Of a DNA stretch of 64,000 nucleotides, positions 63,401 to 64,000 are shown piece by piece. The stretch lies in assembly GCF_003334355.1 (NCBI RefSeq), contig NZ_QOWP01000024.1; one strand, written 5' to 3'. Numbering within the stretch: the stretch's first letter is position 1; every line of letters starts with the position of its first letter. The DNA comes from Escherichia coli (GTDB taxonomy: Bacteria > Pseudomonadota > Gammaproteobacteria > Enterobacterales > Enterobacteriaceae). A program made the position numbers.

Positions 63401-64000
63401 AAATAATAATCAAGTACTAATAGTGATATTTTAAGGTCTGATTTTTACGTGATAATTCAGGAGACACAGAATGCGCATAAAAATAACAGCATAAAACACC
63501 TTACCACCACCCAAGAATTTCATATTGCATTGTTTTTCAATGAAAAAATATTATTCGCGTAATATCTCACGATAAATAACATTAGGATTTTGTTATTTAA
63601 ACACGAGTCCTTTGCACTTGCTTACTTTATCGATAAATCCTACTTTTTTAATGCGATCCAATCATTTTAAGGAGTTTAAAATGGATAAGAAGCAAGTAAC
63701 GGATTTAAGGTCGGAACTACTCGATTCACGTTTTGGTGCGAAGTCTATTTCCACTATCGCAGAATCAAAACGTTTTCCGCTGCACGAAATGCGCGACGAT
63801 GTCGCATTCCAGATTATCAATGACGAATTATATCTTGATGGCAACGCTCGTCAGAACCTGGCCACTTTCTGCCAGACCTGGGACGACGAAAATGTCCACA
63901 AATTGATGGATTTATCCATTAACAAAAACTGGATCGACAAAGAAGAATATCCGCAATCCGCAGCCATCGACCTGCGTTGCGTAAATATGGTTGCCGATCT

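Follow-up and report, generated by a model that had tools for sequence, protein, structure and literature searches.

The window analysed here, a stretch of 64,000 nucleotides of Escherichia coli DNA (contig NZ_QOWP01000024.1 of assembly GCF_003334355.1), ends within gadB, and the question arises whether the promoter of this gene carries an intact GAD box and, if so, what may be concluded from it about the acid induction of gadBC in this strain. A sequence-only reading had placed an exact box at 63583-63602 and had expected GadE-dependent induction of gadBC to be intact. The 20-mer TTAGGATTTTGTTATTTAAA, through which RcsB/GadE would activate the gadBC promoter, is indeed matched at 20 out of 20 positions. 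It occurs as a single exact copy at 63582-63601 (+), i.e. on the coding strand of gadB and upstream of the ATG at 63681, so that the site stands while its coordinates have to be moved by one base to the left. The letters assigned to the box are correct as well, since the same ones are quoted as the previously characterised GadE site, TTAGGAttTTgTTATTTAAa, by Seo et al. (2015, PMC4918353). No second site is present within the 64 kb at up to three mismatches.

The surroundings of the box can likewise be read directly from the DNA. Upstream lies pqqL, encoding an M16 metallopeptidase (60524-63319, +), as a 931-aa open reading frame which is annotated as pqqL in K-12, E2865 and MLI023K1. Downstream, the 5' end of gadB (63681-64000, +), recognised by its translation and by the gadB annotation in matching RefSeq genomes, runs off the window after codon 106, and the translation of these 106 codons is identical to residues 1-106 of K-12 GadB. 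The stop codon of pqqL ends at 63319 and the ATG of gadB occupies 63681-63683, leaving a spacer of 361 bp, which is one base pair longer than the 360 bp initially reported. The description of this region as extremely AT-rich is borne out: its GC content is 30.5% (69.5% AT) compared to 46.9% for the whole window, and merely 0.46% of the 361-bp windows within the 64 kb are equally AT-rich. The arrangement of pqqL, spacer and gadB start is that of K-12. The remainder of gadB (codons 107-466) and gadC fall beyond the end of the window; both are carried by the closest complete genomes, which are other strains. An Rfam search of the spacer yielded no RNA family. Immediately behind pqqL, at 63326-63350 (+), a hairpin consisting of a 10-bp stem and a 5-nt loop and followed by ATTTT (predicted fold -18.6 kcal/mol) is kept in the aligned E. 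coli sequences and probably terminates pqqL. A consensus terminator scan of the region made no call at this hairpin, as its T-run is short, and reported two unconvincing sites instead.

Alignment of positions 63300-63720 with the corresponding region of K-12 MG1655 reveals identity at 420 of 421 positions. The box itself shows no mismatch to K-12 gadB or to K-12 gadA. The sole difference within the spacer concerns position 63528 (about -126, some 54 bp upstream of the box), where the window has C and K-12 has T, and from 63529 through the start codon of gadB the promoter equals that of K-12. Position 63528 belongs to a patch (63500-63529) which varies among E. coli strains; the C is also found in strain ST3, in E69 and in Escherichia sp. 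E1V33, the latter two being divergent Escherichia genomes. Alignment of the paralogous gadA and gadB promoters of K-12 shows the 20-mer to be the only fully conserved upstream block. Upstream of it the two sequences cannot be aligned, and over the 16 bp that follow it they have little in common, until likeness resumes at the core promoter.

To what extent the box is conserved within the species was measured on eight E. coli strains which had been picked for their general resemblance to the window (94-100% along an 801-bp query spanning the site) and not by the box. In these strains an invariant run from 63572 to 63601 holds the box, positions 63602-63604 vary, and 63605-63700 are invariant again. 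Since 209 of 262 positions (about 80%) of the intergenic region upstream are invariant within E. coli too, twenty invariant bases taken alone constitute only modest evidence (0.8^20, about 0.01). The 801-bp query finds matches in all of the complete E. coli genomes (5426/5426), with pqqL and gadB annotated beneath, and the 30-mer 63572-63601, comprising the box and the ten bases preceding it, is exactly present in 5365 of these 5426 genomes (~99%). Beyond this set, species-representative genomes were scanned for the exact 20-mer. The matches include no representative of E. coli sensu stricto and, apart from three considered further below, all belong to Escherichia, namely to E. albertii, E. 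whittamii, Escherichia sp. E1V33 and two divergent genomes which bear the label E. coli. In these Escherichia loci outside K-12 the 20-mer is located at the same distance before gadA-type or gadB-type start codons amid diverged flanks; as the loci were found by exact match, the invariance of the box is given by construction and they indicate its distribution rather than constraint.

Exact copies of the 20-mer are also present in three metagenome-assembled genomes, one of Lentisphaeria and two of Bacteroidales (loci L015, L016 and L018), which we take as chance matches because they lie in unrelated surroundings that seem to be coding sequence. Three such copies across about 300 Gb demonstrate that the sequence can arise fortuitously, and one may ask whether the copy in front of gadB is itself a chance match in AT-rich DNA devoid of a regulatory role. 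One hundred dinucleotide-preserving shuffles of the window, however, produced no match even with three mismatches, so that none is expected by chance. Furthermore, the position of the copy is orthologous to that in K-12, the 20-mer is common to the paralogous gadA promoter, and about 99% of E. coli genomes possess it. In view of the alignments, a fortuitous match is hardly conceivable and can be regarded as refuted for practical purposes. The exact 20-mer, the K-12 alignment, the conserved island shared with gadA, the published promoter geometry considered below and the conservation within the species all agree and, hence, we are highly confident in identifying the site as the canonical GAD box which E. 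coli carries in its gadBC promoter.

The promoter hexamers and the transcription start were placed by the published geometry, the sequence itself being read directly. In gad promoters 16 bp separate the box from the -35 element downstream of it, and the box is centred at -63 (Castanie-Cornet et al. 2010, PMC2887963). Sixteen base pairs past the box of the window (63602-63617) starts the putative -35 hexamer TTGCTT (63618-63623, +), which matches TTGACA at three of six positions and is invariant in 11 aligned promoters. It is separated by 17 bp (63624-63640) from the putative -10 hexamer TACTTT (63641-63646, +), which agrees with TATAAT at three of six positions. By adding 63 bp to the centre of the box (63591.5) we infer a +1 at about 63654 (+), accurate to about +/-2 nt. 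With this start the box extends from about -72 to -53 and, thus, falls within the region from -76 to -50 which RcsB plus GadE protect in DNase I footprints on gadA (PMC2887963); both the 16-bp distance to the -35 and the centring near -63 are fitted by the window, the latter with the start so placed. A generic sigma-70 scan of 63250-63750 failed to call the gadB promoter, its sole call being a chance-level site on the minus strand. Two hexamers with three matches each and no call by a generic scan fit a weak, activator-dependent promoter.

A second element, the RcsB box CGATAAATCCTA, considered a repression site, is found at 63631-63642 (+), where it abuts or overlaps the -10 hexamer, its exact limits being estimated. 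The RcsB box adjacent to the -10 is described as a low-affinity site, and both the GAD box and the RcsB box are reported to be conserved in gadB, the latter with C in place of G at its left end (PMC2887963). Accordingly, the K-12 paralogues read GGATAAATCC in gadA and CGATAAATCC in gadB. Within the GAD box, the left half TAGGATTT (63583-63590) is the exact reverse complement of the RcsB-box core AAATCCTA (63635-63642), and the two constitute an inverted pair of RcsB-type half-sites around the -35, 44 bp apart. This relationship is consistent with RcsB contacting that half of the GAD box, for which a resemblance to an RcsB half-site has been pointed out (PMC2887963).

As to the protein which reads the box, we rely on published work. 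On gadA in vitro, the GAD box is bound by the RcsB/GadE heterodimer but not by GadE on its own (PMC2887963). In the same study a single G-to-C change (M1) in the box abolishes complex formation as well as GadE-dependent activation in vivo; the GG of TTAGGA, one of whose G residues is the M1 position, is present in the window. A further change (M2), in which CC replaces TT within the right half of the box, reduces RcsB/GadE binding only slightly (PMC2887963). We would like to note that footprinting, EMSA and mutagenesis were all carried out on gadA, not on gadB. For gadBC, ChIP-exo and expression data obtained in K-12 indicate that it is among the direct targets of both GadE and GadX, and the core gad genes are activated more than 50-fold by GadE compared to an effect below 2-fold for GadX (PMC4918353).

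The mild effect of M2 raises the possibility that the conservation of the 20-mer is owed to another or an additional binder, such as GadX/GadW, SlyA or H-NS, instead of RcsB/GadE, because the M2 positions are invariant here. Similarly, the GadE motif derived from ChIP-exo, TTARGAWWWWAAATA, is far less strict than the 20-mer, and earlier work, as cited in PMC6128205, holds that GadW/GadX may repress under some conditions by competing for the gad box. Against this stand the direct DNase I protection of the box by RcsB and GadE, the loss of complex and of in vivo GadE-dependent activation caused by a single exchange (PMC2887963), and the minor effect of GadX on the core gad genes relative to that of GadE (PMC4918353). 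In addition, the best GadX/W-type motif of the region does not coincide with the box. It is the GadX/GadW-like sequence AGGTCTGATTTTTACGTGAT at 63434-63453 (+; about -220 to -201), situated about 150 bp upstream of the box; identified by motif match only, it deviates at one position from the ChIP-exo motif AKGKCTGWTWTTWWYMYVAK (PMC4918353) and is the best of three matches to that motif in the window at up to two mismatches (0.36 expected). Taken together, we regard it as very improbable that the conservation is owed to another or an additional binder of this kind. A direct repeat, ATTTTTAYGTRATAATT, occurs at 63369-63385 and, with a spacing of 72 bp, at 63441-63457 upstream of gadB. Its second copy overlaps the GadX/GadW-like motif, and the two copies may, as far as such an overlap suggests, represent two GadX/W sites. 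GadX/GadW sites on gadBC have reportedly been mapped by Tramonti et al. in 2006.

The best-supported reading, drawn by analogy with the gadA promoter, is that a heterodimer of RcsB and GadE binds upstream of the weak gadB promoter and activates it. The response regulator RcsB and the LuxR-type activator GadE would jointly occupy the 20-bp site, about 63 bp upstream of the start and 16 bp upstream of the weak -35/-10 pair, and would thereby bring about transcription of gadB, encoding glutamate decarboxylase, and of gadC, encoding the glutamate/GABA antiporter. Acid or stationary-phase signals would act by raising the amount of GadE. The surrounding AT-rich region is of the kind silenced by H-NS, GadX/GadW-type sites would be located further upstream, and the low-affinity RcsB box beside the -10 would mediate repression once RcsB is highly active. 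It might further be speculated that the gadA and gadB boxes are under a second, overlapping constraint beyond recognition by RcsB/GadE alone, since none of the 20 positions varies between the two promoters or across about 99% of E. coli although M2 is mild and the ChIP-exo motif is loose. A competing factor at the site, or a demand on DNA shape or phasing in countering H-NS, might be responsible. We consider such a constraint quite improbable.

Whether the strain actually induces gadBC also depends on genes elsewhere, and the remainder of the window offers a limited view of the state of its genome. E. coli MLI023K1 runs colinear with the window, the identity being 99.62%, whereas none of the complete E. 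coli genomes matches its whole length exactly; E2865 is 100% identical over the last 801 bp, but is not colinear over the full window. Mapping of the annotation gives the gene order ydfZ ... marRAB ... lsr operon ... hipBA ... ydeP-safA-ydeO ... yddAB-pqqL-gadB'. Compared to MLI023K1, the window is short of one base at about 11247 and of another at about 13725 (region 10572-13727). The former splits the reading frame of a PTS EIIC protein into 10572-11261 and 11231-11932, while the latter lets a carbohydrate porin frame end prematurely at 13727, after 466 instead of about 557 aa. Both genes appear frameshifted, be it as real pseudogenes or as a result of sequencing errors. They are part of a GntR/PTS/porin/6-phospho-beta-glucosidase cluster between eamA and marB which, to our knowledge, is absent from K-12. 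The only Rfam match in the whole window at gathering score is STnc560, an Hfq-binding sRNA (RF01407), which is matched over its full length at 6533-6746 (+; 281.9 bits) between dgcZ and mgtS/mgtT and in part opposite to them. An autotransporter gene of the ECSE_1600 family, frameshifted in E2865, has an intact frame of 1806 aa here (37640-43060, +), and a 361-bp stretch in front of it (start about 37226, GC 28%) is the most AT-rich one of this length in the window. At 45724-46872 a frame of 382 aa is found where MLI023K1 annotates ydeT, an N-terminally truncated usher pseudogene; at this locus E2865 carries a full fimbrial operon (fimA, chaperone and full-length usher). The adjacent ydeS (46886-47416) is intact in the window and frameshifted in MLI023K1.

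The two apparent 1-bp frameshifts imply that gene decay or sequence errors do occur in this genome. They lend some weight to the notion that the box is intact while induction of gadBC is defective in this strain, be it by mutation of gadE, rcsB, rpoS or dsrA or by a lesion in the unseen parts of gadB and gadC. All these genes and parts are outside the window, as are gadX and gadW; with the trans-acting genes and most of gadB located there, it is only the cis requirement that can be called intact. Yet, loss of trans-acting factors of the gadE, rcsB, rpoS or dsrA type is the exception among E. coli. Moreover, the acid-resistance genes which can be inspected are full-length: ydeP (759 aa) and ydeO (253 aa) are found at 49240-52800, about 11 kb upstream of gadB, an open reading frame between the two covers safA, and GadB residues 1-106 equal those of K-12. 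The EvgAS-YdeO branch, of which ydeO and safA are members, induces gadE. A precedent for a silent system nevertheless exists in BL21(DE3), whose GadA/B, GadC and GadE genes are reported to be identical to those of MG1655 and whose system is inactive all the same, which has been attributed to the missing rcsB and dsrA (PMC5040553). On balance we consider defective induction in the present strain unlikely. The expectation that GadE-dependent induction of gadBC is intact consequently holds for the cis site and the core promoter. It has to be amended in that the activator is the RcsB/GadE heterodimer, not GadE alone, and in that unchanged gad genes together with gadE do not suffice for an active system, as BL21(DE3) illustrates. 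An intact GAD box read by RcsB/GadE is, hence, necessary but not sufficient for induction.

The genome thus possesses the usual cis-regulatory layout of the operon which is mainly responsible for glutamate-dependent acid resistance. The GAD box before gadB is an ordinary and already described feature which ties the window's end to the pqqL-gadB locus and has little meaning beyond annotation. Its closest counterpart is the gadBC promoter of K-12, whose GAD box is reportedly also credited to Castanie-Cornet & Foster (2001). The two share the 20-bp sequence, its strand and its distances to -35, -10 and ATG, as well as the flanking genes, with pqqL in front and gadB behind, and the neighbouring RcsB box bearing the C specific to gadB, and across the 361-bp spacer they differ by no more than the T-to-C exchange at 63528. 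The gadA promoter of K-12 has in common with the window the same 20-mer, the same spacing to the TTGCTT ... TACTTT core and a similar RcsB box. In contrast, the flanks on either side of its box are unrelated to those of gadB or strongly diverged from them, the first base of its RcsB box is G where gadB has C, and it resides in the acid fitness island while gadB occupies the pqqL-gadB locus. The box and the GadE ChIP-exo motif (PMC4918353) have the TTAGGA core in common, as well as an AT-rich right half. Applied as a rigid, ungapped pattern with up to two mismatches, this motif does not match the gadB box and is uninformative (seven matches in the window versus 5.2 expected, none of them at gadB). 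It was obtained from 16 peaks as a degenerate 15-mer, of which the gadA and gadB boxes represent a specific and far more constrained instance.
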